A DNA stretch of 64,000 nucleotides from an uncultured Solirubrobacterales bacterium (GCA_963724405.1 CAVRUQ010000003.1:1722140-1786139), one strand, 5' to 3'. Numbered from the stretch's first letter, positions 11,473 to 61,647 are shown. Numbers and translations: made by a program. Notes: generated from the sequence alone by a model not told the origin.

Positions 11473-12738
11473 CTACCCGAGGCGATCGGCGATGTACTCG
11501 GCGATCGCCAGCGAGGACGTCGCGCCGGGCGACGGGGCATTGCGGATCGCCGTCACGGCGCCGAGGTGGCTGATCTGGAAGTCGTCCAGGAGCGCGCCGT
11601 CGGCGCCGAGCGCCTGCGCGCGCACCCCGGCCGGCGCGCGGACGACATCCGCGTCGCGCAGCGACGGAACGAAGCGGCGCGCCTCCGCGAGGTACGCGCG
11701 CCGCGAGAGCGAGCCGCGCAACTCGCGCGCGCCCGCCCGCCAGTGCACCCGCGCAAAGCGCGCCAGGCCCGGCGCGCGCAGCAGGTCGCGCACGTCGCCG
11801 AGGCGCACGTCGCGGCGCCGGTACCCCTCGCGAGCAAGGGCGAGCACGGCGTTCGGCCCGATGTCCACCGTTCCGTCGACGCGCGGGGTGAAATGCACGC
11901 CCAGAAACGGGTACGCCGGATCGGGCACGGGATACACGAGGCCCCGCACGAGCCCCTCGCGCCCGCGCACGAGCCGGAAGTACTCGCCGCGAAACGGCAC
12001 GATCGCCGGCGCGGGTCCGTCCCCGGCCAGGCGCGCGAGCCGATCCGACTGCAGACCGGCGCACAGGACGACCCGATCGAAGGCGAGGCGCCCCTGCGGT
12101 CCGGCGAGCTGCACGGCCTCGCCGTTGGGCTCGATGCGACCGACCTCGAACCCGAGCCGCACCGCACCGCCGCCGGCCACGATCGCTGCGGCGTACGCCG
12201 CAGCGATCGCACCGTAGTCGACGATCGCCGTGTGGGGGGAGTGCAGCGCCGCCACCCCGTGAACGTTCGGTTCGAGCTGGGCGATCTCGCCGCCCTCGAG
12301 CACGCGCAGGCCCGGCACGCCGTTCGCGCGGGAACGGGACTCGAGCTCGCGCAGCGCCGGCAGCTCGGATTCGTCGCGGGCGACGACGAGCTTCCCTCGC
12401 TCGTCGTAGGCCAGGCCGTGCTGCGCGCAGTAGTCGCGCAGGAGCTCGCGCCCGCGGGTGCACAGCTGCGCCTTGAGCGAGCCCGGTGCGTAGTAGAGGC
12501 CCGCGTGGACGACGCCGCTGTTGTGGCCGGTCTGATGGACGGCGATCCGGGACTCCTTGTCGAGCACGGTGACGCGTGCCGCCGGGTCGCGCCGTTGGAG
12601 CTCGCGCGCGAGCGCGAGCCCGAGGATGCCCGCGCCGACGATGCCGACGCCCGCCGCTGTCGTTGGGCCGCTCAAGGGCGCCGACGGTAGAGCGGGGACG
12701 GGCCGGGTGTCAAGAACGCGCCCGCGCGGCCGAGTCAT
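11473..12738 (-). CDS. lhgO: FAD-dependent L-2-hydroxyglutarate oxidase/dehydrogenase (LhgO family)
   Basis: N-terminal GVGIVGAGILGLA dinucleotide fold plus HQTGHNSGVVHAGLYYAPGSLKA, characteristic of LhgO. Start at the internal Met at 12738 (MTRPRG...). Confidence 0.75.
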   Translation of the reverse strand: MTRPRGRVLDTRPVPALPSAPLSGPTTAAGVGIVGAGILGLALARELQRRDPAARVTVLDKESRIAVHQTGHNSGVVHAGLYYAPGSLKAQLCTRGRELLRDYCAQHGLAYDERGKLVVARDESELPALRELESRSRANGVPGLRVLEGGEIAQLEPNVHGVAALHSPHTAIVDYGAIAAAYAAAIVAGGGAVRLGFEVGRIEPNGEAVQLAGPQGRLAFDRVVLCAGLQSDRLARLAGDGPAPAIVPFRGEYFRLVRGREGLVRGLVYPVPDPAYPFLGVHFTPRVDGTVDIGPNAVLALAREGYRRRDVRLGDVRDLLRAPGLARFARVHWRAGARELRGSLSRRAYLAEARRFVPSLRDADVVRAPAGVRAQALGADGALLDDFQISHLGAVTAIRNAPSPGATSSLAIAEYIADRLG

Positions 12739-49816: not shown

Positions 49817-50053
49817 ATGCGCACCACTCTCACCTTGGCGGACGATGTCGCGGCCGCTATCGAGCGAGTTCGTCGTGAGCGCTCGATCGGCCTGAGCGAA
49901 GCCGTCAATGAACTTGTTCGTGCCGGCCTCGTCGTCACACAGGACAGACCACCGACTTCGTTTCGGCAGAAGTCCCACGACCTCGGCCGCGGGATCGACT
50001 TCGACAACATTGCCGACACCCTCGAGACGCTCGATGGACCGTCGAGCAGCTGA
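49817..50053 (+). CDS. Ribbon-helix-helix antitoxin (VapB/CopG-like)
   Basis: 78 aa. N-terminal TLTLADDVAAAIERV RHH pattern. 1-nt stop/start overlap (TGATG) with the downstream PIN gene. Confidence 0.6.
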   Translation: MRTTLTLADDVAAAIERVRRERSIGLSEAVNELVRAGLVVTQDRPPTSFRQKSHDLGRGIDFDNIADTLETLDGPSSS

Positions 50054-50478
50054 TGCTGCTCGACGCCGACCTGCTGCTCTACGCCGTTCACGAGCGCGCC
50101 GAGCAACACGAGCAGGCCACGGCGTGGATGACGGAGAAGCTCAACGGCGCAGTTCGCGTGGGGTTTCCATGGCAGAGCATCAACGCGTTCCTGCGCATCT
50201 CGACCCATCCACGCGCGTTTCAGCGGCCGCTTGACCCTGAAACAGCATGGGAGCGCGTCACCGACTGGCTCGCCGCGCCTGTCGCCTGGGTCCCGCAGCC
50301 GGGCTCTGAGTATCAACGCATCTTTGGCGAGCTCATCGGAACCCACCAGGTACGCGGCAACCTGATTCCCGACGCCGCGCTTGCCGCCCTCGCCGTCGAA
50401 CACGGCGTCACGCTCGCCTCTACCGACACGGACTTCGCGCGCTTTCGCGGGCTTCGGTGGGAGAACCCGCTGAACTGA
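50053..50478 (+). CDS. PIN-domain toxin (VapC-like)
   Basis: N-terminal LLDADLL acidic motif, a mid Asp/Glu and the C-terminal TDTDFARF motif, as in PIN nucleases. Confidence 0.65.
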   Translation: MLLDADLLLYAVHERAEQHEQATAWMTEKLNGAVRVGFPWQSINAFLRISTHPRAFQRPLDPETAWERVTDWLAAPVAWVPQPGSEYQRIFGELIGTHQVRGNLIPDAALAALAVEHGVTLASTDTDFARFRGLRWENPLN

Positions 50479-50784
50479 GCGAATGGGGCAGGGCCGATCC
50501 GCGCCTCCCGGGGCGACTCTGACAAACTCGACCGTTGCGACCGCCGCGCCGATCGCTCGCGCATGTCATTGCTGGATCGCGAGCTCGATCCGACGTCCAA
50601 CACACGATCGAGGCAACCTCGAGCAGCTGGCTGAGCTGCCTCAGCACGGGCGGGAATCCATGCCAGGCGAGCTCTCTGGTCGACCGACCACCCGGCATGT
50701 TTGACATCCGTCTGACGCGCGCCCGATTCGGGCGCAAAGCGGCGTCGCCGTGGTCGCGATAAGCCGGCCGATCGGGTGCACCCT

Positions 50785-50860
<76 letters not shown>

Positions 50861-50981
50861 GCCTCGACACCAGCCGGCACGATGCGGATGGGTCGGTCCG
50901 TATCAGGTTTGGCGGGCCGGCGCTCTTCGTCTTTGAGCACCGACCCGATCGGTTCACCACACGCCAAGACAGGGGAGTTCG

Positions 50982-53087
50982 ATGAGTCCTCAGCCACCCG
51001 AGTTCGAAGCGGGAGGGGCACCCAAGCTCCCGCGCGAGCGCGCGCATTTCACCGAGCTACTGCTCGCCAACCACTTCAAGGAGATTGCTGCTCCGGCGGA
51101 GGGGACTCCGCCCGAGGGCAACACGACCTACGAACAGCTCACGTGCATCGGCTATCAGCCACAGCTCGGCCAGCTCAACGCCGTCGTGAGCCTCAAGCAG
51201 GCGAACGGCTACTCGGGCGGGATCTGCAGTGCCGGCTCGCAGGAGTACGTGAAGTTCTTTGCCTCGACCGACGGCGGTGCAACATGGACCACGCTTGGCG
51301 TCACCTCGTTCACCTCCCGGGACGTGGCCGGACCGAAGCCCCTCGAGTTCGACGTCACCCTTCCGGTCGATCTGGCCCAGGCGTGCTGCAAGAAGGAGAA
51401 CCTCGTCCTCATCCGCGCGATCCTCTCCTGGCGGGTGCCGCCGGGCGGCGCCACCGACCCGGTGGTGTGGGGCAATGGCGTCGACGCCTACGTCCAGGTC
51501 GCTCCGCTGACGCTCGGCACCCTCACCGAGGTCTTGGAGTGCCTGGAGATCCCGCTTGAGCCCCACGTGCTCAGCGAAATCGCCAACCCCGAGCAGATCG
51601 TCGAGTTCGGTCCCGCCAAGCCGCTCACGCCGCTGCAGCTGCACGAGCTCTACCGCGACACCGACATTCCCCAGCATCGGTACCTGCTCGGCCCCGTGGC
51701 GCAGCTGCTGGCCGATCCGGTGGCCCTCGGCGCCGCGGTCGACCAGCCTGGGCTGCAGCTGTTTCCGGGACTGCAGGGCATCGCCGAGATCGGATCGATC
51801 GTCGGCAGCATCCTGGATCCGCAGGGCAACGAGACCTACGAGCAGCTCGGCTGCATCGGGCTGAACCCGAGCACCAGCGCGCTCGTGGCCACGATCGACG
51901 TCAAGCAGTCGGCCGGGTACTCGGGCAGCCTCTGCACCAGCGGCAGCCAGGAGTACGTCGCCTTCTGGGCCGACTCCGGGAGTGGCTACGAGTACGTGGG
52001 GACGAGCTCGGTCAACGTGCACGACCTCCCGTCGATCCCTGCCGGCGGCGTGCGGTACTCCGCGGCGCTGCCGTTCCCGCAGGCGCTCACGCAGCGCCGG
52101 GCATGCACCGACGGACCGAACACGGTGGCCATCCGGGCCGTGCTGTCGTGGGCGACGCCCCCGTCGGACACGAACCCGTACGCGGTTCCGGTCTGGGGCG
52201 GGCATCTGGAGGCGACGGTCCTCATCCCGCCCGGCGAGCCGGTCATGCCCGGGGGCGGCCCGGACCTCGAGTCCATCGGCAACATGCCGATCGGCCTCAT
52301 CGACCAGGGGACCGGCCTGGCCACCGGCCAGTCGCTGGCCACGTTCGTCGCCACCGCGTCGCCGTTTGGCGGAGTCGTCAACTTCAGCGGGCACGTGATC
52401 AATCCGTCGGGTGGCGTGGGCGGCACCGGCCTCAGCTACCGGATCCTCATCAGCACCGACGGTGGCGTCACCTCGACGCCGATGACCGCGCCGTTCCACG
52501 TCGAGACGAACAACTGGATCACCTCGGTTCAGACGTCCGTCCTGCAGACACCCGACTCGTCCGGGTGGGTCAGCTGCCTGGAGAACTACGCCGCGAACAC
52601 CGACGTCGTCGGCAACCTGCTCGGCCAGTGGACGACTGCGGGCAACGGACAGCTGTGGGTGGCGATGGAGGCTCGTCAGGGCTCCACGCCCCTCGGTCCC
52701 GCGATGCCGACGTGGACGCTCATCCAACTGGACAACACCGCCCCGTCTCCGGTCACGGTGGAGATCACCAGCGGCGGCGGCTCGTGCGGCGACTTCCAGC
52801 CGGGAGCGCTCATCGAAGGCACCTACTCGGCGGCCGACAACGAGGATCTCCGGGCCGTGAGCATCGCAGTCGAGATGCCGATGCCCGGGTCGACCCTGAC
52901 CAAGGTGCCGACGTTCACCAGCCTGACCAGCGAGTCGGGCACGTGGAGCCTGCAGACGCTGCCGACGACGGAGCCGTGCGGGTACACGATCGTCGCTCAG
53001 GCCAGCGACAACACGATCGTCAACAGCGGGTTCGTCGGCTGGACCACGGAGGCCTTCACCGGTCTGTGCCTGCGGCCCGCCACGTGA
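50982..53087 (+). CDS. Uncharacterised 701-aa protein with an internal tandem duplication of a ~205-aa domain
   Basis: Residues ~47-250 and ~284-490 are clear paralogous repeats (NTTYEQLTCIGYQPQ...YSGGICSAGSQEYVKFF... versus NETYEQLGCIGLNPS...YSGSLCTSGSQEYVAFW...). Conserved Cys pairs. No signal peptide at the annotated start. Confidence 0.5.
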   Translation: MSPQPPEFEAGGAPKLPRERAHFTELLLANHFKEIAAPAEGTPPEGNTTYEQLTCIGYQPQLGQLNAVVSLKQANGYSGGICSAGSQEYVKFFASTDGGATWTTLGVTSFTSRDVAGPKPLEFDVTLPVDLAQACCKKENLVLIRAILSWRVPPGGATDPVVWGNGVDAYVQVAPLTLGTLTEVLECLEIPLEPHVLSEIANPEQIVEFGPAKPLTPLQLHELYRDTDIPQHRYLLGPVAQLLADPVALGAAVDQPGLQLFPGLQGIAEIGSIVGSILDPQGNETYEQLGCIGLNPSTSALVATIDVKQSAGYSGSLCTSGSQEYVAFWADSGSGYEYVGTSSVNVHDLPSIPAGGVRYSAALPFPQALTQRRACTDGPNTVAIRAVLSWATPPSDTNPYAVPVWGGHLEATVLIPPGEPVMPGGGPDLESIGNMPIGLIDQGTGLATGQSLATFVATASPFGGVVNFSGHVINPSGGVGGTGLSYRILISTDGGVTSTPMTAPFHVETNNWITSVQTSVLQTPDSSGWVSCLENYAANTDVVGNLLGQWTTAGNGQLWVAMEARQGSTPLGPAMPTWTLIQLDNTAPSPVTVEITSGGGSCGDFQPGALIEGTYSAADNEDLRAVSIAVEMPMPGSTLTKVPTFTSLTSESGTWSLQTLPTTEPCGYTIVAQASDNTIVNSGFVGWTTEAFTGLCLRPAT

Positions 53088-53102
53088 CCGCGGGGAGGAG
53101 GG

Positions 53103-53442
53103 TCACATGCGCCTGACCGACCCACCGGCGCGTTTCGTGCTGGCGTCACTCGCCACCTGGCGAGTGACGCACCTCCTCGCCGAGGAGGACGGGCCGGCCG
53201 ACGTCGTCGTGCGCCTGCGGGCGCGCGCCGGCGCCGGCCGGCTCGGCGGCCTGATGGACTGCTTCGGCTGCCTGAGCATCTGGGTGGCGGCGCCCTTCAG
53301 CGTCGGCCTGGCCGGCGCGCGACGCCGAGGCCCGGTGGCGTGGCTCGCCGTGTCCGGGGCGGCCTGCCTGCTCGAGCAGGCCACCCGCGCGCGCACCGCG
53401 CCGTCCCACGTTCCGACCGAAGAGGAGACCGAACAGCCATGA
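53103..53442 (+). CDS. DUF1360 family small membrane protein
   Basis: Motifs RVTHLL, DGPADVVVRLRA and DCFGCLSIWVA (C-x-x-C-x-S-x-W), characteristic of DUF1360. GGGAGGAGG RBS. Confidence 0.55.
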
Positions 53443-53807
53443 GCTGCTGCGGCGCTAAGCGCGAGACACTGAAGCGAGGTGGGACGGCGACCTCGGGGCG
53501 TGCGTCGCAGTCGCCTCGCGCGGCGGGGGCAGCGCCGGCGCCTGTGCGGGACCCCGGGTCGGGCAGGAGTGTGGCCATCCTGGCATACCTCGCGCGCAAT
53601 GCGCCCGGGCGCAAGGCGTGAGCGGGACGTGGCTGACCGTGCGCGGCCGCCACGACGGCTCGACCTCCCGATCACGAAAGGCCGCAGAGACAAATGAGGG
53701 CCAGCTGACGATCGCATCCAACGACTGCGTCGTCGCCAGCCCGCCCGACGCTGGTAGGGTGGCCACCACCGTCCGATCTGGGACGGGACGTTGCGCAAGG
53801 GGGCGTC

Positions 53808-54389
53808 ATGACGAAGAAGGCGATCAGACGCGCAGCCACGGCTGGGGCTCTCGCGTTGGGCCTCTTGCCGATCGGAGCAGTCGCCGCGCCGCCGACGCCG
53901 GCGACCGCGCACGCCGGTTACGTCGGCACGGTGAGCGGCAGCCGGGCCTTCGTCGCCGTCGTAGTGAACGGCGGGAGCGTGACGGCCTACGTGTGCGACT
54001 CGCACTCGGTCGCTCGGTGGTTCAGGGGAACGGTCCACGGTGGACGGGCCACGCTCGAGTCGACCACCGGCGACTCGGTCCTGGCAGTCACCGTCGCGCA
54101 GCGGCGGGCAACGGGAACCGTCCGCCTTGCCGGCGTGACGCACTCCTTCTCGGCCACCCCCGACGACGGGGAGGCGGGCCTGTATCGCGGCACCAGGACC
54201 GCGGCCGGTCAGCGGTATCTCGGCGGCTGGATCATCCTGCCCGACGGGCGCCAGCGCGGCGCGGTCGTCTCCGGTTCCACAGTGGTGGCCAGCCCCACGC
54301 TCAACCCGAACGACCTGACGGTCGACGTCAAGCCCAAGGACATGCCGAAGCACGTGGTCATCGCCATCATCGCGATCCTCATCGGCTGA
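53808..54389 (+). CDS. Signal-peptide protein with a C-terminal TM anchor (193 aa), uncharacterised
   Basis: N-terminal signal peptide (AGALALGLLPIGAVAAPPTPATAHA). C-terminal hydrophobic anchor HVVIAIIAILIG. The C-terminal 50 aa is duplicated at 60470-60645. Confidence 0.5.
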   Translation: MTKKAIRRAATAGALALGLLPIGAVAAPPTPATAHAGYVGTVSGSRAFVAVVVNGGSVTAYVCDSHSVARWFRGTVHGGRATLESTTGDSVLAVTVAQRRATGTVRLAGVTHSFSATPDDGEAGLYRGTRTAAGQRYLGGWIILPDGRQRGAVVSGSTVVASPTLNPNDLTVDVKPKDMPKHVVIAIIAILIG

Positions 54390-54761
54390 GCGCGCCGGCT
54401 GCGAGGTCTCCCATCAATCGGGTAGGGGCCGGGCGGCCCCGGCCCCTCCCACACCACCGGACATGCGGGTCGTCCCAGAGACTCCCGCAGAGGCCTCCCG
54501 GGATAAGGCCAGCCACCTTCCTCGCGCACCCGCCGCATTTACGTGACGGCCCCCTGATGACATCGGGCTTCGCCATATCGTGCTGGCTCGCCCAGACCGC
54601 CCCGCCTCTGATGCGATTCGTGTCCCTCGGGTCGCGATTTTCGCCTCCGGCTTCCTTCCCACCCCGCCTCACGACGACGCAGTTGCCCTTGACTTGTGGT
54701 TGGTGTCATCAACCTCCACAGGGGACTCGCACCCCCAAGCGGCTGGTCATGCCCGGCGTAC

Positions 54762-54920: not shown

Positions 54921-55547
54921 TCAGGCCGCCGGCGCGACGACCGTCTCGACCAGGCCGCTGACGACGTCGTAGACATGGCCGGACAGTCTGATGCGAGGAG
55001 AGATCGCGGGCGCCGCGCGGAGGCGCTCCACGTCGTCGGCGACGGTCGCCGCGGGATCGACGACAGCGTGCGCGCGCAGGCTCGATTCCTCGGCGCCGAT
55101 CCGCGCGGCGTACCGGTGTCGGAAGGTGTCGTCAGCGAGCGCCCCGGCGCCGCACTGGTTGTGGTGGATCACCGCAACCTCGAAGAGTGGCCCGTCGTCG
55201 GGGATTGCGTACTCCGCGATTTGGCCGATGAAGGCCACGTCGTTGATGACCTCTGGGGTAGCGCGCCCGCCCACGTTGCGGACGACCATCGCGTCGCCGA
55301 GGCGGAGGCCCAGGAAGTGCGCGGGGTCGACGCGCGGGTCAAGGCAGGTGATGACGAACAGGCGCAGGTTGGGGAACACGACGGCGCCTTCATGGCCGCC
55401 CGCGACGGCGAAGGCGCGGTTGCGCTCGAGCGCGATCTCGACGTTCCCGGCGACCGGCTCGGCGGGCCTGGCCAGCTCGAATCCGGTGGCCCGGCCGATC
55501 CCCGAGCCGGCGTTCGTGCGGAGCGGTGTGGATGGATGGTTGCTCAT
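54921..55547 (-). CDS. Beta-class carbonic anhydrase
   Basis: C-x-D-x-R motif (ITCLDPRV) and H-x-x-C motif (HHNQCGA), the zinc ligands of beta-CA. Confidence 0.8.
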   Translation of the reverse strand: MSNHPSTPLRTNAGSGIGRATGFELARPAEPVAGNVEIALERNRAFAVAGGHEGAVVFPNLRLFVITCLDPRVDPAHFLGLRLGDAMVVRNVGGRATPEVINDVAFIGQIAEYAIPDDGPLFEVAVIHHNQCGAGALADDTFRHRYAARIGAEESSLRAHAVVDPAATVADDVERLRAAPAISPRIRLSGHVYDVVSGLVETVVAPAA

Positions 55548-55579
55548 GGTGTGCTGTCTCCTGCGGCTTGGGGATGGGA

Positions 55580-57148
55580 TCAGCTGCTCGCCCTAGCGGT
55601 GGTGGGCGAGCCGGTTGCTCGCAGCTCGGCTGCTTGATCGTTGCTCACGCTCGGCTGGGCGGGCAGCAGCGAGAGCGCCATCACCGCGCCTGCGGCGGCA
55701 ACACCTGCGGCCAGGTAGTTCGCGGCGTGGAAACCGTGGAAGAACGCTGCGCTTGCGGCGTTGTGAAGAGCCGCCGCGAACACTGGATGGCCTGCTGACC
55801 CCAGCTCACTTGACGCGGTGAGCGCGGCGCCAACGGACGCGTGCGCGGTCCGCGCGACGGCGGTCGGCAATCCGATCGGGAGCGCGATCGAGAGCCGGCG
55901 GGCGTACAACGAGGCGTACAAACTCCCCATCACCGCAACGCCGAGCGTGCCGCCGAGCAGGCGCGTGGCGTCGTTGATCGCCGACCCGACGCCGGCCTTG
56001 GCCTTCGGCACCACGCCCATGATCGCCTCGGTCGCGGGTGCGCTCGTGAGGCCCAAGCCCGTCCCGGCCACGACCATCTGGGCGGCGATCGTCCCATAGC
56101 CGGTGCCGGCCGTTGCGGTCGTGAGCCACAGGTAGAAGGCAGCCATCAAGAACAGCCCGGAGGCCACGACCAACTTCGTGCCGAGCCGCACGGCCAGCCT
56201 GGCACCGAAGATCGAGGAGACGGCGACGCAGGAGGCGACCGGCAGCAGACGCACCCCGGTTGAGAGCGGGCCGTAGCCCTTCAGGAACTGGAAGTACTGG
56301 GTGACGAGGAAGATGAACCCGGACAGCGCGAAGAACGAGATCGCGACCGAGGCACTCGCGGCGGTGAAGCGAGGGTTGGCGAACAGGGTCAGGTCGAGCA
56401 TCGGCTGCTTGGTGCGGCGCTCCCAGGCCACGAACGCCGCCGCCAGCGCGGCCGTGAATGCGAAGCCACCGAGTGTCCGCGCGCTAGCCCAGCCTTGGTT
56501 CGGGGCCTCGATGATCGTGTAAACGAGCAGCCCGATCATTGCGGTCGAGAGCGCGAAGCCGGCGCGGTCGGTGTCGGGCGCGTGCGGGTCGCGCGAGGCC
56601 GGCGCGTAGCGGGCGACGAGGAAGCCGGCAAGAGCGGCGATCGGCGCCATCGCGAAGAAGATGCTGCGCCAGTCGAACGCCTGTAGCAGCCACCCGCCGG
56701 CGATCGGGCCGAGCGCGATCGCCGCTCCCGTGGTCGCACCCCACAGTCCGATCGCCCGTGCGCGCTCGCCGCGTTCGCTGAAGACGTTCGAGATCAGCGA
56801 CAGCGTCGAGGGAAACACCATCGCCGCACCCACGCCCATCACCGAGCGCGCCGCGATCAGCGCGCCGGGACTGTTCGTCAGCCCCCCGGCCAAGCTCGCC
56901 AGACCGAACACCGACAGGCCGGCGAGCAGCATCCCCTTGCGCCCGAACCGGTCCGACAGGCTTCCCGCCGCCAGCACCGATCCAGCGAACAACAGGTTGA
57001 ACGCGTCCACGACCCACTGCAGCTGCGAGTTTGACGCGTGCAGCTCGCGGACGAGGGTCGGCAGCGCGACGTTGACGATCGTCGTGTCGAGGTTGATGAC
57101 GAACGCCGCCAGCAGCAGCGAGGTGAGGATCAGCGGCTTGAGTTTCAT
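55580..57148 (-). CDS. MFS transporter, DHA2 (14-TMS) family
   Basis: LDTTIVNVALPTLVRELH and LSDRFGRKGML motifs. Start at the Met at 57148 with a GGAGGAG RBS. Confidence 0.85.
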   Translation of the reverse strand: MKLKPLILTSLLLAAFVINLDTTIVNVALPTLVRELHASNSQLQWVVDAFNLLFAGSVLAAGSLSDRFGRKGMLLAGLSVFGLASLAGGLTNSPGALIAARSVMGVGAAMVFPSTLSLISNVFSERGERARAIGLWGATTGAAIALGPIAGGWLLQAFDWRSIFFAMAPIAALAGFLVARYAPASRDPHAPDTDRAGFALSTAMIGLLVYTIIEAPNQGWASARTLGGFAFTAALAAAFVAWERRTKQPMLDLTLFANPRFTAASASVAISFFALSGFIFLVTQYFQFLKGYGPLSTGVRLLPVASCVAVSSIFGARLAVRLGTKLVVASGLFLMAAFYLWLTTATAGTGYGTIAAQMVVAGTGLGLTSAPATEAIMGVVPKAKAGVGSAINDATRLLGGTLGVAVMGSLYASLYARRLSIALPIGLPTAVARTAHASVGAALTASSELGSAGHPVFAAALHNAASAAFFHGFHAANYLAAGVAAAGAVMALSLLPAQPSVSNDQAAELRATGSPTTARASS

Positions 57149-57262
57149 GACTCCTCCGGTCGAACGCGGTCGGACAAGGCTCGACATCGTTCTAAACCAA
57201 GAAGACAAGAAAATCAAGTTATCAGACTAATATTAGTACCTTCTGCTAGAGTAAGTTCGCAA

Positions 57263-57937
57263 ATGAGGTCCTACGACGAGTACTGCGCACTCGCGAAATC
57301 GCTCGACGTCGTCGGCGACCGGTGGACGCTGCTGATCATCCGCGAGCTCGCGTTGCGCGGACCATGCCGGTACACCGACGTGCGTAACGGACTCCCCGGG
57401 ATCGCCAGCAACCTGCTGGCCGAGCGGCTGCGCGAGCTCGAGCACGCCGGCGTCATCGCGCGCGAGGAAGCGCCGCCACCGATCGCGACCACCCTGCTCC
57501 GCCTCACCCCGCGCGGCGAGCAGCTCCGGCCGGCACTCGAGGACTTGATCCGGTGGGGGCTTCCGCTGATGACCGATCAGAAGCCCGATGATGCCGTCCG
57601 GAGCCACTGGCTGGCGTGGGCGCTCGAGCTCATGCTCAGCGATCGCCAGCCGGACGCACCCGCCGTGACCGTCGAGCTTGTCACGGGCGATCAACCGATC
57701 GTGATCGAAACACGCGACGGCGCGATCCACACCCGGCTCGGCCCGGCCGACGGAGCCGACGCGACGCTCACCGGACCCCCGAAGCCGATCCTCGGGCTCC
57801 TGCTCGGCCTCCTCCAACCCGCCGATGCCAAGGCGCGCGGAATCGACTACCAGGGCGACCCGGCCATCCTCGACCGCATCGGCGTTGCACACGACACCAA
57901 GCGCTTCACGGAGCTGAACGCAAACGGACCCTCCTGA
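57263..57937 (+). CDS. HxlR family winged-helix transcriptional regulator
   Basis: YCALAKSLDVVGDRWTLLIIRELALRGPCRYTDVRNGLPGIASNLLAERLRELEHAGVI is the canonical HxlR signature. Divergent from the MFS gene. Confidence 0.8.
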   Translation: MRSYDEYCALAKSLDVVGDRWTLLIIRELALRGPCRYTDVRNGLPGIASNLLAERLRELEHAGVIAREEAPPPIATTLLRLTPRGEQLRPALEDLIRWGLPLMTDQKPDDAVRSHWLAWALELMLSDRQPDAPAVTVELVTGDQPIVIETRDGAIHTRLGPADGADATLTGPPKPILGLLLGLLQPADAKARGIDYQGDPAILDRIGVAHDTKRFTELNANGPS

Positions 57938-58077
57938 TGCGGGAGCGACCGTGCGGCTCTGGCGATGGACAGAGCTGATCGGCGCTTTCGAACCGCGTGG
58001 ACGTGGGAAAACTCGCGGCGGAACTGGCGGTTGCCGCCTGTTGTGACCGTTGACGCGGCCCCATTTCACGGCCTGCG

Positions 58078-58216
58078 CCACCAACGCCGAAGGCCACTTC
58101 TCGACTGGCCTTCGGGTCTTCGGTCGGCCTCCGTGCGGGCCCCTCGGGTCACGCCCCTTGCTCGGCCGGGGTAGCGGCGGCGGGATTCGAGCCGGAGACT
58201 TCGGATTATGAGCCCG
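58078..58216 (-). repeat. Repeat B: hairpin flank plus degenerate tRNA-fMet 3-prime half (most diverged copy)
   Basis: CACCAACGCCGAAGGCCACTTCTCGACTGGCCTTCGGGTCTTCGGTCGGCCTCCGTGCGGGCCC...GGTAGCGGCGGCGGGATTCGAGCCGGAGACTTCGGATTATGAGCCCGG. The hairpin keeps compensatory base changes. Confidence 0.75.
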
Positions 58217-58613
58217 GAATCTGGGAGCGAGGCTGCGCCCGCCCGGCGATTCGGTTGAGCTTCTTGTCGAGCGTCAGCAGCGTCGCGTCCGCGCCCAGCG
58301 CAGTCGCGAGAGACAGCGCATCGGGCAGACGCAGCGAGGGGTGGTCGGCCCTGAGACGAGCCGCGCGCCGAGCAACGGCGCGATCGACCGGGACGACCGC
58401 GATGCCCGCTGCATCGAGAAATCCCTCCACCGTCGAGTCGGTCCCCTGCTGCAACGGGCGCACGATCGTCTCGGCATAGACAGTCGCGCCCAGCAGCAAC
58501 TCGTCGCCCGCTGCCAGCCGGGGACGCAGCTGCGCCACGGCGCGGTCGTGCTGATCGTCCCCGGGATCGAGGAATGCGATCACGACGTCCGCGTCCAGCG
58601 CTACCCGCGCCAC
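58206..58613 (-). CDS. PIN-domain toxin (VapC-like)
   Basis: N-terminal ALDADVVIAFLD, mid AETIV and C-terminal LTLDKKL motifs. Overlaps the upstream antitoxin ORF by 13 nt. Confidence 0.7.
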   Translation of the reverse strand: MARVALDADVVIAFLDPGDDQHDRAVAQLRPRLAAGDELLLGATVYAETIVRPLQQGTDSTVEGFLDAAGIAVVPVDRAVARRAARLRADHPSLRLPDALSLATALGADATLLTLDKKLNRIAGRAQPRSQIPGS

Positions 58614-58822
58614 TCGCCACGCAGCTCGTCGAGGTGCCCACGCGGATACGTTCCAGCAGGCAGGCTGCCGGCGTATCGGTCGATCACGTCGTCGGCGCGC
58701 TCGACCTCGATCCGGCCGCGGCCCGCCGCTCGAATCACGACCTCGTCACCCGCTGCCAAGCCAGCCTCCTTGATCACGCGAACGGGAAGGGTCACCTGAT
58801 TCTTTCTAGAAACCTTGCTCAT
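58601..58822 (-). CDS. AbrB/MazE/SpoVT-type antitoxin
   Basis: MSKVSRKNQVTLPVRVIKEAGLAAGDEVVI swapped-hairpin beta-barrel signature. Start at the Met at 58822 in a locally AT-richer promoter region. Confidence 0.65.
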   Translation of the reverse strand: MSKVSRKNQVTLPVRVIKEAGLAAGDEVVIRAAGRGRIEVERADDVIDRYAGSLPAGTYPRGHLDELRGEWRG

Positions 58823-59010
58823 CGCTTTACGATCATAGCAATAGGTAAAGCAGTAGGCGGCGGGCGTGACGGTCATCCTGCTCGCTGCAACTGTCCCGTT
58901 CACAGACCATGTGATGCCGCCGAATGGATGCAGGTTCGCGAGGCCGTGCTGGAACGCGAAGGTGCCCATCGGCCCGATCCGGCCCATGCGGACTCTGAAG
59001 CATCCGGCCC

Positions 59011-59149
59011 CACCAACGCCGAGGGCCGCCATCACGCGCGGCCTTCGGGTCTCTGGTCGGCCTCCGTGCGGGCCCTTTCGGGTCTCGCGCTGCGGTCGGC
59101 CGGGGTAGCGGGGGCGGGATTCGAACCGGCGACCTTCGGGTTGTGAGCC
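59011..59149 (-). repeat. Repeat C: hairpin flank plus degenerate tRNA-fMet 3-prime half
   Basis: CCACCAACGCCGAGGGCCGCCATCACGCGCGGCCTTCGGGTCTCTGGTCGGCCTCCGTGCGGGCCCTTTCGGG...GGTAGCGGGGGCGGGATTCGAACCGGCGACCTTCGGGTTGTGAGCC. The anticodon loop is mutated (CTCACAA). Confidence 0.8.
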
Positions 59150-59279
59150 AGAACGCGTGCCGGGATCGCTGCGGTCGAGCGTGACCGTGACGCTTCCTGC
59201 TTCCCGCGCTTGACGATCCGCAGACGCGCCGCAGGTCGCCCCAACCGACCGCTAACCGACGCTTTCTGCGGCGTGCCCG

Positions 59280-60401
59280 GTGGACCGCGCGATCACCGGC
59301 TGCGTCCGCTCTCCGGCGCGGGGCGCGATCAGGGCCACCGTCAGCGCGGCCCCGACGCCGGCGAAGCCCGCGCCGAGGACCGGTCGATTCGCCGGCCTGT
59401 TTGTCGTCATCTGGTGGGTCTGGGTCGCCCTCACCACCTACGCCGATCGATTCGGCACCGAAGACGGGTTCAACCGCGTCGCCATGCTCGTGGCGATGCT
59501 CCTGGCCAGCGCGCTGGCCGCCTCCGTGCCCGGTGCGTTTGCCGGGCACACGGCGCCCTTCGCGATCGCCTATACGCTGCTCGAGTGCGAGGAGGTGGCG
59601 CTGTACGAGCGCGCCCGCCGACAGGTGATCGCGGTCCGCGAACTCCACCGCCGCTATGTCTTGACAGGCGTCGTGAGCCTGGGCTTCTGGCTGGCGTCGC
59701 TCACGCTCGTCGGCACTGGGCGATACACGCTATGGGCGATCGCCATCGCCATCGAGATGGCCAATCCATGGCTCAGCCTGAAGGCGTCCCGCCCGGCGCC
59801 GCATAACGCCTCTCACCTGCCCGAGCGCTTCGGCACCTTCATCCTCATCGTGCTCGGCGAGTCGGTCGCGCGGCTCGTCAGCGCCGCCGCACAGCGGCCG
59901 TGGACCGTGGCGCTGTGCGTAGTGCTCGCCGCCGCGTTTGCAATCGTCGCAGGCCTGTGGTGGATTTCCTTCGGCGCCATCGACCATGGCTCGGTCCGGC
60001 GCGGTCGGCGAGCGACCTTGGCCTACATGTACACGCAGTTGCCGATGGTGGCCGGCATCGCAGCCGCGAGCGCCGGCCTGCATCGCGCCATCCTTGCGGC
60101 CGCGGGAGCCGGCCCGATCGCGATGGGCCCCCGAGCAGCGCTGTACGGCGGCGTGGGCCTGTATCTGCTTGCCGCGGGCGCCTCGGCGTCTCAACACGGC
60201 CGCCGGCGCGCTCGGCGGGTCCGTTTGGCCGCGGCCGTGTCGTCCTTCGGACTCATCTTGATGGGCGCGATCGTCGCACCCGTCTATCTCGTCCCGGCCC
60301 TCACGGTCGTCGTGCTCGTCGCGATCGCGCTCGATGCGCCGCGCCGCCGTGATCCCGAGCCGGTGCGTCGAGTCGGGTCACTCGCGCTCGCGCGGGCGTA
60401 G
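59280..60401 (+). CDS. LtrA (low temperature requirement A) family membrane protein, apparently N-terminally truncated
   Basis: IWWVWVALTTYADRFGTEDGFNR and LPERFGTFILIVLGE motifs of the LtrA/DUF1211 family. The first two TM helices expected upstream of the IWW motif are missing. The ORF begins within 130 nt of repeat C. Confidence 0.6.
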   Translation: MDRAITGCVRSPARGAIRATVSAAPTPAKPAPRTGRFAGLFVVIWWVWVALTTYADRFGTEDGFNRVAMLVAMLLASALAASVPGAFAGHTAPFAIAYTLLECEEVALYERARRQVIAVRELHRRYVLTGVVSLGFWLASLTLVGTGRYTLWAIAIAIEMANPWLSLKASRPAPHNASHLPERFGTFILIVLGESVARLVSAAAQRPWTVALCVVLAAAFAIVAGLWWISFGAIDHGSVRRGRRATLAYMYTQLPMVAGIAAASAGLHRAILAAAGAGPIAMGPRAALYGGVGLYLLAAGASASQHGRRRARRVRLAAAVSSFGLILMGAIVAPVYLVPALTVVVLVAIALDAPRRRDPEPVRRVGSLALARA

Positions 60402-60469
60402 GGGCCCCGGGCATGGATCCCGGTCAAGCGACCTCGCGGCAACATCGGCCGGCAGGGCTCCTGTGAACG

Positions 60470-60645
60470 ACAAGTGGCGCGGTGGCCGAGATCGGATCAT
60501 CCTCCGCGACGGGCGTCAGCGCGGCGCCGTCGTCTCGGGCACCGCAGTGGTGGCCAGCCCGACGCTCAACCCGGCGGACGCCACCGTCGAGGTCAAGCCC
60601 AAGGACAATCCGAAGCAAGTAGTCATCGCGATCCTCATCGGCTGA
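60470..60645 (+). pseudogene. Gene fragment paralogous to the 3-prime end of the 53808-54389 gene
   Basis: About 80% nucleotide identity over ~170 nt, including the stop codon (IILRDGRQRGAVVSGTAVVASPTLNPADATVEVKPKDNPKQVVIAILIG). The upstream part of the listed ORF (60334-) lacks homology. Confidence 0.5.
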
Positions 60646-60852
60646 GGACGCCGGCCGGGCGCCGCCTGCCCGCTCTTCTCTACGTGGGGAACGTCCTGCA
60701 TGGCCGTGGCGCGGCGGGCGCTGATCTCGAGACACCGAAGGCCACTCTTTCCCGGTCTGGCTCGGTGTCGGTCGGTCCCGGGTGGACTCGATGCCGCCGT
60801 CAGCTCTGGCGGCGCGGCGGCGGTATGAAGTCTGAACCGTAGAATCGCGGCC

Positions 60853-61254
60853 ATGCCGTTCACGCTCAGGAACCTCAGGGAGGATCTGCCGGACGTCGGG
60901 TCCAACTTCGACGGCGCACCGGACCTGGAGTTCCGCCCCGCGACTAAGGCGCTCGAGCTCGAGCAGTCCGGCCTGAGCTATCAGCGCATCCCGCCCGACT
61001 ACCGGTTCCCATACGGCCACACGCACGCGGAGCAGGAGGAGGTGTTCGTGGTCCTCGGCGGGAGCGGGCGGATGAAGCTCGACGACGAGATCGTCGAGGT
61101 GAAGAACTGGGACGTCGTGCGCGTTCCGCCCGGTACATGGCGAGGGTACGAGGCCGGGCCGGAGGGCCTCGAGATCCTCGTCTTCGGCGCGCCCAACGTC
61201 GGCGAGAACCCGCGGGAAGACGTGGAAGGTCAGCGAGACTGGTGGGCTGACTGA
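60853..61254 (+). CDS. Cupin domain protein
   Basis: Cupin motif 1 (GHTHAEQEEVFVVLGGSG) and motif 2 (GTWRGYEAG). 133 aa. Confidence 0.7.
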   Translation: MPFTLRNLREDLPDVGSNFDGAPDLEFRPATKALELEQSGLSYQRIPPDYRFPYGHTHAEQEEVFVVLGGSGRMKLDDEIVEVKNWDVVRVPPGTWRGYEAGPEGLEILVFGAPNVGENPREDVEGQRDWWAD

Positions 61255-61373
61255 GCGTCGCCCGGCGGATGGTCGGCGGTTGCTTTCGCGGAACCGGCTC
61301 GCGTCGTGGCGTGCCTCCTGGCCGATGTTCGACATCCGTTGTTTGACACGTGCCCAATTCGGCCGCCTCCCGA

Positions 61374-61465
61374 GAACGCCGAAGGCCGCCCTCGCGGGCG
61401 GCCTTCGGGTCTCTGGTCGGCCTCCGTGCGGGCCCGTTCGGGCCTCGCGCCTCGGTCGGCCGGGA
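61374..61465 (-). repeat. Repeat D flank: conserved double-hairpin sequence immediately downstream of the intact tRNA-fMet
   Basis: GAAGGCCGCCCTCGCGGGCGGCCTTC perfect 11-bp stem plus the GGCCCGTTCGGGCC hairpin. The same block recurs in repeats A-C. Probably acts as the tRNA terminator. Confidence 0.75.
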
Positions 61466-61539
<74 letters not shown>

Positions 61540-61647
61540 TCGCTGCTTACGTTTTAGCACAACATCTGCGCCCTGAACAACCGGACCGGACGCCGATCGG
61601 GGCGTCGACCGGCTCCGTGCGCAGGCCATTCGCGGCCCCCGGCTACG

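Follow-up and report, generated by a model that had tools for sequence, protein, structure and literature searches.

A conserved operon of a large cysteine-rich protein, a DUF1360-like membrane protein and an overlooked 60-residue open reading frame in an uncultured Solirubrobacterales bacterium

In a 64,000-nucleotide stretch of DNA from an uncultured Solirubrobacterales bacterium (GCA_963724405.1 CAVRUQ010000003.1:1722140-1786139; the whole stretch is referred to here as the window, with positions counted from its first letter), a gene for a 701-residue protein with an internal repeat is followed by two smaller, co-oriented genes. The locus raises the question of which of these genes belong together and, if they form a unit, what a set of proteins with no recognisable function might do. 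A preliminary description, made from the DNA alone, had grouped all three as a possible surface or envelope module carried by an insertion segment. The three open reading frames (ORFs) lie at the coordinates it gave, and their third-position GC content (0.91, 0.90 and 0.89) is that of genuine coding sequence in a 70% GC genome. The make-up of the module is a different matter: a 60-residue ORF that had been overlooked is its true third member, and the 193-residue gene lies outside it. The relevant features are as follows.

50982..53087, + strand: large protein, 701 residues, without a signal peptide or transmembrane segment; third-position GC 0.91
53107..53442, + strand: DUF1360-like protein, 111 residues, with three hydrophobic segments; third-position GC 0.90
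53439..53621, + strand: 60-residue ORF (MSCCGAKRETLKRG...AILAYLARNAPGRKA), N-terminus MSCCGAKR, referred to below as the MCCG ORF; third-position GC 0.80
53808..54389, + strand: 193-residue signal-peptide protein, an adjacent gene outside the module; third-position GC 0.89

The neighbourhoods of 701-residue homologues at the 80 best species-level loci in GTDB reveal a conserved gene order. The DUF1360-like gene stands directly downstream of the large gene, on the same strand, at 27 of these loci in at least two phyla. The MCCG ORF, which is carried by 27 of the 80 loci, comes after the DUF1360-like gene at 26 of the 27 that have it, and the complete order of large, DUF1360-like and MCCG genes is found at 26 loci. 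Contigs retrieved independently through the small protein displayed the same trio. The trio loci belong essentially to one clade of the large protein, from Actinomycetota and Acidobacteriota with two outliers, and a few members of this clade have lost the small pair. A neighbour-joining tree of the large proteins mixes phyla rather than following taxonomy, and therefore points to horizontal transfer. Taken together, the large gene, the DUF1360-like gene and the MCCG ORF constitute one conserved, horizontally mobile operon, whose three genes very probably form a functional unit; the module matches no described system. The earlier proposal of an undescribed module of three co-oriented genes thus holds for the first two (27 of 80 loci) and fails for the 193-residue gene (none of 80).

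Two observations on individual loci may be recorded here. At L001/L003 (~12100-12220; a Solirubrobacterales metagenome-assembled genome), an intact large gene is followed by an 18-residue remnant of a DUF1360-like protein, the helper pair having decayed. At two Terriglobia loci (L053 12818-17935 and L083 8357-13392), the trio opens a same-strand seven-gene cluster that continues with genes for a sigma factor of the extracytoplasmic function (ECF) class, a zf-HC2 anti-sigma factor, and proteins with DUF8256 and TPR-CHAT domains.

Within the window, the DUF1360-like start codon lies 19 nt after the stop codon of the 701-residue ORF, behind a GGAGGAGGG Shine-Dalgarno sequence, and the ATG of the 60-residue ORF overlaps the stop codon of the DUF1360-like gene (ATGA). 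Of 24 loci where the start could be called dependably, 22 have an MCCG start that overlaps the DUF1360-like 3' end, by 4-215 nt and typically by 4, 31 or 38; this suggests translational coupling of the two genes. The exact 60-residue product is absent from the protein collection and the ORF is thus not annotated in the source record. Its family comprises 481 proteins without a Pfam match, and the sole invariant feature of these is an N-terminal C-C-G, usually followed by Q-K-R. The protein is hydrophilic throughout (maximum Kyte-Doolittle value of 0.56), with its cysteines at positions 3-4 and with neither a lipobox nor a hydrophobic segment.

The reciprocal search, a metagenome scan that started from the DUF1360-like gene, returned more than 547 relatives of its subfamily. 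Among the 80 metagenome loci kept, the MCCG ORF was present at 59, and the adjacent large gene belonged to the 701-residue family at only 10-13, with one of three other families of 650-900 residues occupying this place at 24 or more. The alternative large partners may be encoded on the same strand, divergently or, at one locus, downstream. A Pfam search with ten of them gave no significant match, the one weak match being below the cut-off, and inspection of their N-termini by eye revealed no signal-like hydrophobic stretch. Two alternative partners in which cysteine was counted (L154 1240-3921 and L153 664-2859) contain 4-5% of this residue. The small pair is the constant core of the system and serves several different large partners, from at least three unannotated families besides the 701-residue one. 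The N-terminal regions of the L154 and L153 proteins display repeated helical cysteine motifs, for example C-x3-C-x7-C-x3-C-x3-C. At L100, L116 and about ten other actinobacterial metagenome loci, an ORF of 260-300 residues that by eye resembles a SARP/BTAD-type transcriptional activator lies directly upstream of the small pair; in actinobacterial loci it often separates a divergent large gene from the pair, the large gene being otherwise downstream.

The large partners resemble one another at their C-termini. In the 701-residue family the tail reads P-C-G-Y-x-I ... D-R-T-I-V ... G-F-C-L, and in the alternative families P-C-A-Y-I-V ... I-x-F-C-K, E-C-C-G-Y-x-F ... D-K-T ... C-I-C-N-D-L-P or N-C-S-Y-V-V ... 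F-C-I-C-G-H, with the common cysteine pattern [P/C]-C-[G/A/S]-Y ... F-C. Alignment of the last domain of the 701-residue protein to the alternative tails with hhalign gave P = 4e-5 over 22 columns (probability 70%) and P = 1.3e-4 over 98 columns (54%). A C-terminal cysteine-bearing domain common to the large-partner families is likely on these comparisons, if not proven.

The 701-residue protein itself is no orphan; it is a member of an unannotated family of ~700-residue proteins. A word-indexed search brought up 1,599 homologues, which hardly vary in length, an exhaustive profile search gave 1,411 clusters at 50% identity with E <= 1e-3 and 531 with E <= 1e-30, and a scan of one genome per species in GTDB placed the family in at least 475 species of bacteria and archaea. 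The closest relatives are in Solirubrobacterales (66-70% identity); other carriers are found in Acidobacteriota, Chloroflexota, Proteobacteria, Cyanobacteria, Planctomycetota and Deinococcota, and the archaeal ones in Methanosarcina and Nitrososphaera. No relative was detected in the viral contigs of IMG/VR, so that a phage origin has no support. As the preliminary description had stated, the protein belongs to no recognised family: Pfam, NCBIfam, PHROGs and PADLOC yielded nothing significant, and a profile search of the PDB with the family alignment had a best E-value of 0.86.

Self-alignment of the protein pairs residues 44-176 with residues 280-418 at 42% identity (E = 2e-26), and the motifs C55-I-G and C82-x-x-G-S-Q-E-Y-V-x-F of the first copy recur as C291-I-G and C318-x-x-G-S-Q-E-Y-V-x-F in the second. 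The tandem duplication noticed earlier is therefore real and carries the quoted motifs in both copies; the repeat is ~135 residues long, not ~205, and the distinct C-terminal region behind it measures ~280 residues, not ~210, divided between two further β-sandwich domains. An AlphaFold2 model built from 27 homologues (mean predicted local distance difference test score, pLDDT, of 86; predicted template-modelling score, pTM, of 0.80) has an N-terminal helix (residues 18-30), a first sandwich, a helical linker of ~100 residues, a second sandwich, and sandwiches at 420-575 and 576-701. The domains correspond to these positions:

51111..51509, + strand: repeat domain 1, residues 44-176, a seven-strand β-sandwich with the Asp-box S95-T-D-G-G-A-T-W102
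51510..51818, + strand: helical linker, residues 177-279 (modelled helices 181-278)
51819..52235, + strand: repeat domain 2, residues 280-418, paralogue of domain 1 by self-alignment and in the model
52239..52706, + strand: domain 3, residues 420-575, a β-sandwich with a degenerate Asp-box, S-T-D-G-G-V-T
52707..53084, + strand: domain 4, residues 576-701, the C-terminal β-sandwich with C602, C666 (P-C-G-Y) and C696 (G-L-C-L-R)

The protein is predicted to consist of four generic immunoglobulin-like (Ig-like) β-sandwiches and a helical linker, and its top fold matches are all extracellular Ig-like domains. Neither remote-homology nor fold searches assigned the repeat domain to a characterised family, the outcome on which its novelty had been said to depend. 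A BNR/Asp-box β-propeller was considered and discarded: the match scores 15.2 bits against a Pfam cut-off of 27, there is one perfect motif (residues 95-102) and one degenerate one, and the modelled fold is a β-sandwich. The idea that the linker is a ComEA-like helix-hairpin-helix (HhH) domain, taken from two JGI protein names, was likewise dropped at an hhalign probability of 0.3%.

Where does such a protein reside? The 701-residue sequence contains no hydrophobic window, and its start codon is preceded by an in-frame stop. The conserved N-terminal motif could be recognised in 153 relatives; in five of these it stands behind a clear Sec or lipoprotein signal peptide, and the cysteines are kept. 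Accessory domains occur in parts of the family: archaeal members are fused to a ComEA-type HHH_3 domain, cyanobacterial members contain a transthyretin-like (TTR-like) domain, and a group of very acidic sequences, which we take to be haloarchaeal from their appearance, combine an N-terminal PG_binding_1 domain with a C-terminal lamin-tail domain (LTD).

The cysteines of the protein follow a regular pattern. The alignment of 27 sequences has nine invariant ones, three apiece in domain 1 (C55, C82, C136), domain 2 (C291, C318, C375) and domain 4 (C602, C666, C696). Over 303 sequences, C55 and C291 were lost jointly 12 times, compared with 7 single losses; as the two also correspond in position between the repeats, a contact between them is most likely. 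Several sequences have Glu/Glu or Glu/Asp pairs in their place. C82/C136 and C318/C375 are almost never lost. The patterns fit disulfides in domains 1 and 2, and a metal site in domain 4 is possible. A vicinal cysteine, C135, was tried as a marker of helper-linked genes and proved to be only actinobacteria-specific. The five signal-bearing relatives, the PG_binding_1, LTD and HhH fusions and the co-loss of cysteines make an envelope or surface role of the family plausible. In this form the surface assignment of the preliminary description survives, for a protein that itself lacks a signal peptide and a transmembrane segment; the suggestion that the module is adhesin-, receptor- or toxin-like has no support, no domain of these kinds having been found.

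The second protein of the operon had been recognised as DUF1360, and the match to PF07098 bears this out, at 26.6 bits (E = 6.3e-6), above the cut-off of 21, though the aligned part is confined to the C-terminal half (profile positions 48-101 of 102); residues 1-40 remain unaligned, and the match is not full-length. An acidobacterial orthologue scores 23 bits. With DUF1360 the protein shares the C-x-x-C-x-S-x-W segment, a length of ~110 residues and a score above the gathering cut-off; it differs by its own motifs and by partners that look obligate, the MCCG gene and a large cysteine-rich protein. From these comparisons it is classed as a divergent DUF1360 subfamily. Its invariant motifs are W-R-x-x-H-L, E-D-G-P, D-C-F-x-C-x-S-x-W and S-G-A-A-C-L-L-E, so that a CxxC and a third cysteine are invariant together with His, Glu and Asp residues, and its identity across phyla is 45-70%. 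The sole PHROGs match is a family of unknown function, and no functional data on DUF1360 or DUF8256 emerged from a literature search. Because DUF1360 is itself a domain without a known function, the match offers no mechanistic explanation.

Our preferred reading, which we hold tentatively, is that the DUF1360-like and MCCG proteins are a dedicated, membrane-associated, thiol-active helper pair. The C-terminal domain of the large partner would be the target of the pair, which would oxidise or cross-link the partner, export it or tether it, and the large protein would end up as a binding or structural protein of the cell envelope or the extracellular space. Invariant cysteines in all three proteins and the joint losses of C55 and C291 speak for this reading, as do the conserved gene order and the reciprocal search with its likely common C-terminal domain. 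A destination outside the cytoplasm is favoured by the five signal-bearing relatives, the accessory fusions and the extracellular Ig-like fold matches. Several observations weigh against it. None of the three proteins showed an enzyme motif or fold match. About two thirds of the large-protein family (~50 other loci) are solo genes without a helper pair, with no other widely conserved neighbour at these loci, and a helper therefore cannot be generally required. As many as 148 of the 153 relatives, the 701-residue protein among them, have no signal peptide, and no export route was identified; the PG_binding_1 and HhH fusions, which come from archaea-like sequences, lack signal peptides as well, so that they do not prove a location outside the cell. 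The charge bias of the DUF1360-like protein leaves its membrane topology ambiguous. Two replacements of C602 by His and eight solitary losses of C696 fit a metal site better than a disulfide. Lastly, homology of the C-terminal domains has only moderate backing from hhalign probabilities of 54-70%.

A more specific version of this helper-pair reading is a two-component pathway that exports, cross-links or tethers several unrelated signal-less, cysteine-rich families of 650-900 residues through their common C-terminal domain in Actinomycetota and Acidobacteriota. We regard this as quite unlikely; if true, proteins would reach the surface by a new, Sec-independent route or mature through a new thiol-based system, and the DUF1360 superfamily would gain its first function.

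The main rival places the proteins in the cytoplasm. The three three-cysteine sets of the large protein, in domains 1, 2 and 4, would bind soft metals or metalloids or serve as a thiol-redox relay, and the N-terminal Cys-Cys of the 60-residue protein and the CxxC/Cys/His/Glu site of the membrane protein would pass the ligand to or across the membrane, with the vicinal-cysteine relay of MerT, MerP and MerA as the model of such a hand-off. The absence of signal peptides from 97% of the members agrees with this placement, as does the occurrence of the family in strict anaerobes and archaea. Also in its favour are exactly three invariant cysteines in each of three domains of the 27-sequence alignment, the exchange of C602 for His, the solitary loss of C696 and the Glu/Glu or Glu/Asp replacements of C55/C291, and the invariant His, Glu, Asp and Cys residues of the membrane partner. 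Set against these points are the lack of a conserved metal-sensing regulator, efflux pump or reductase nearby, the few members that are clearly exported, and an Ig-like multi-domain architecture that would be unusual in a cytosolic metal handler. On balance a cytoplasmic relay appears unlikely, and the readings that follow are weaker.

The small pair with its exchangeable large partner could also be viewed as a bacteriocin-like operon on mobile DNA, consisting of a signal-less toxin, a membrane immunity protein and a small release factor, with the N-terminal bodies of the large proteins as polymorphic effectors. Colicin operons comprise activity, immunity and lysis genes, and the order and sizes of the genes in the present operon are like theirs. 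The patchy distribution suggestive of horizontal transfer, the tRNA-flanked segment described below and the variable large partners beside a constant small pair also speak for such an operon. Searches of Pfam, NCBIfam and PADLOC, however, revealed no feature of a toxin, nuclease, pore-former or lysis lipoprotein, and the 60-residue protein has no lipobox or hydrophobic segment. The putative immunity protein, at 45-70% identity across phyla, is conserved far above the level usual for immunity proteins and is missing beside two thirds of the large-protein genes. Furthermore, polymorphic toxins vary at the C-terminus, which is the constant part here. We consider a bacteriocin improbable.

The Terriglobia gene cluster brings up a protease-linked conflict or signalling system, with the large protein as a putative sensor or substrate that acts together with CHAT or other proteases and an ECF sigma/anti-sigma pair. 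The trio is followed there by ECF sigma, zf-HC2 anti-sigma, DUF8256 and TPR-CHAT genes, and CHAT proteins are encoded near solo genes in Chloroflexia and Acidobacteriota. At a Methanosarcina sp. T3 locus (L043 12427-14453), S8-TPR and Trypco2-Pepco genes adjoin the homologue. A 2025 preprint (10.1101/2025.11.14.688446) describes Pepco as a protease-activated effector. The Trypco2-Pepco and Peptidase_S8-TPR proteins at L043 form a protease-effector pair of a kind that has recently been described as antiviral defence. Such neighbours are absent from the window, from the actinobacterial loci and from other trio loci. Non-syntenic CHAT genes occur at 4-5 of ~55 loci, which by our own estimate is within chance in CHAT-rich phyla, no PADLOC match was obtained, and none of the viral contigs contains a relative. 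Beyond the single Terriglobia synteny block, the case for a general association with CHAT or other proteases was unconvincing, and we give this reading little chance.

The 193-residue protein is better regarded as an unrelated neighbour. Both of its ends are hydrophobic, with a signal-like segment at the N-terminus and a stretch of 12 residues at the C-terminus, as had been reported previously in outline. A gap of 186 nt separates its gene from the operon, and no homologue is present at any of the 80 loci related to the 701-residue gene. The family comprises 53 proteins with a conserved signal peptide and a nearly invariant C-terminus, ...VIAIIAILIG, which is not followed by a basic tail and might serve as a sorting or anchoring signal of an undescribed kind. 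In the one other readable context (L089), the homologue occurs without a 701-residue gene, has unrelated genes on either side and lies close to those for a TrwC relaxase and a large serine recombinase; the second context is a contig of only 1.8 kb. The 193-residue gene is an unrelated neighbour outside the module, and the anchored protein once assigned to the module is withdrawn from it. That all three originally listed genes form one surface module as island cargo, for which co-orientation, close spacing and the signal peptide and hydrophobic tail of the 193-residue protein could be cited, is contradicted by the neighbourhood data (no homologue at 80 loci, an unrelated context elsewhere, the 186-nt gap) and very improbable.

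The operon lies in a segment of the window (G+C of ~70%) that is bounded by partial copies of a tRNA gene. These and the other genes of the region are:

50815..50871, - strand: 3' half of tRNA-fMet, a pseudo-tRNA and att-like repeat (Rfam tRNA, 30.6 bits)
54508-54678, - strand: group II intron remnant of 171 nt, a full-length match to Rfam group-II-D1D4-3 (126 bits)
54921-55547, - strand: β-carbonic anhydrase
55580-57217, - strand: MFS transporter
within 57038-57937, + strand: HxlR-type regulator
59110..59150, - strand: second copy of the tRNA-fMet 3' half, with 3 mismatches, the other boundary of the segment
59280-60401, + strand: LtrA-family protein, in the next segment
61466..61539, - strand: intact tRNA-Met (CAU), found with Rfam, with a C1-U72 mismatch and three G-C pairs in the anticodon stem

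The mismatch and the three G-C pairs identify the intact tRNA as the initiator type. Its 3' half is present in three copies (61470-61510, 59110-59150 and 50819-50859), where none would be expected by chance; the copy at 50819-50859 is an exact 41-nt repeat of the intact gene, and the edge of the segment lies ~110 nt upstream of the start codon of the large gene. The aligned stretches (50749-50894, 59040-59185 and 61400-61545, all on the - strand) show that a further ~65 nt beyond the end of the tRNA are common to the 61.4-kb and 59.1-kb copies. The three copies and this common stretch suggest the tandem accretion of two island segments of ~2.3 kb and ~8.25 kb.

The ~8.25-kb segment holds the module, the 193-residue gene, the group II intron remnant, which sits between that gene and the carbonic anhydrase gene and has no other intron part or reverse-transcriptase ORF nearby, and the genes for the carbonic anhydrase, the MFS transporter and the HxlR-type regulator. 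The last three and the LtrA gene are ordinary cargo with no visible tie to the module. Just outside the boundary formed by the tRNA fragment, a small ORF (49817-50053, +) is followed by one for a PIN-domain protein (50053-50478, +), an arrangement that has the look of a VapBC-type toxin-antitoxin pair.

The segment resembles tRNA-linked genomic islands in its flanking direct repeats of the tRNA-fMet 3' half, the feature by which tRNA-integrated islands are recognised, and in its slightly lower G+C content (0.66-0.70 versus about 0.73). It differs from them in its cargo of ordinary genes with an intron remnant and in that Pfam matches to integrase or recombinase families were not found among the candidate ORFs scanned (54921-61335), nor matches to excisionase or transfer genes among those scanned in both segments. 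The insertion proposed in the preliminary description thus has the three tRNA-fMet copies as its sole support. No tRNA-Met or att-like site adjoins the module at the eight related loci that were scanned for tRNAs, so the link to such sites elsewhere was not upheld, and the window shares no flanking synteny with the loci of its closest relatives. The segment looks like an old, decayed island that is incidental to the biology of the module.

The interest of the operon lies in the breadth of the family, the constant small pair with its variable large partner, the overlooked mini-ORF and the handling of signal-less, Ig-like cysteine proteins. If the module works as a unit, it would represent a new system built from three database-blank protein families, the long-standing DUF1360 among them. 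It would also assign a role to a widely missed mini-ORF family and raise the question by which path signal-less Ig-like proteins of the disulfide type, which number in the hundreds, mature or arrive at the envelope. Even with a mundane mechanism, the family definition, the domain map, the cysteine-pairing hypothesis and the set of partner genes can be used in annotation.

Comparison with known systems indicates partial likenesses. The large protein has Ig-like β-sandwich domains in common with multi-Ig-like surface proteins and adhesins (PrgB, Antigen I/II, Big-domain proteins) and with the MG chains of alpha-2-macroglobulin, and its last domain opens with the L-D-N-T-A-P motif typical of Ig-like repeats. 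In contrast to the adhesins, it has no signal peptide, LPXTG or other anchor; its overall arrangement is unmatched among Ig-like surface proteins (TM-scores of 0.1-0.2), there is no PDB relative by sequence profile, and the high pTM (0.80) points to a compact assembly and not to a beads-on-a-string arrangement. From alpha-2-macroglobulin and thioester proteins it is set apart by the lack of CGEQ (the nearest motif is S-C-G-D-F), by its length (701 versus ~1,500 residues) and by Foldseek TM-scores of 0.07-0.13. A colicin-type operon would require a cytotoxic domain, which Pfam, NCBIfam and PADLOC did not reveal here, and the 60-residue protein, hydrophilic and with its cysteines at positions 3-4, is not a lysis lipoprotein.

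The systems that handle exported proteins offer further parallels. In holin-dependent export (type 10 secretion, TcdE-type), as here, a large signal-less protein is encoded beside a protein of ~110 residues with three hydrophobic segments and a charged, here acidic, C-terminal tail; the operon departs from this scheme in having no endolysin or muramidase partner nearby and in a DUF1360-like protein that is far more conserved than the usual holins. Cargo of the type IX secretion system (T9SS) carries N-terminal Sec signals and depends on large outer-membrane machinery, the module has no sequence similarity to the C-terminal domains sorted by T9SS, and it occurs in actinobacteria, which are monoderm, as well as in Acidobacteriota; the likeness is in the logic, with unrelated large proteins that share a C-terminal β-sandwich and a dedicated membrane component. 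DsbB and VKOR have four or five helices and two cysteine pairs, compared with three hydrophobic segments, one CxxC and a single cysteine in the DUF1360-like protein, which has no Pfam or NCBIfam match to them (by sequence comparison only) and no identified quinone site. What it has in common with these enzymes is a small polytopic form, a CxxC at the membrane boundary, additional invariant Cys, His and acidic residues, and clients that are rich in cysteine.

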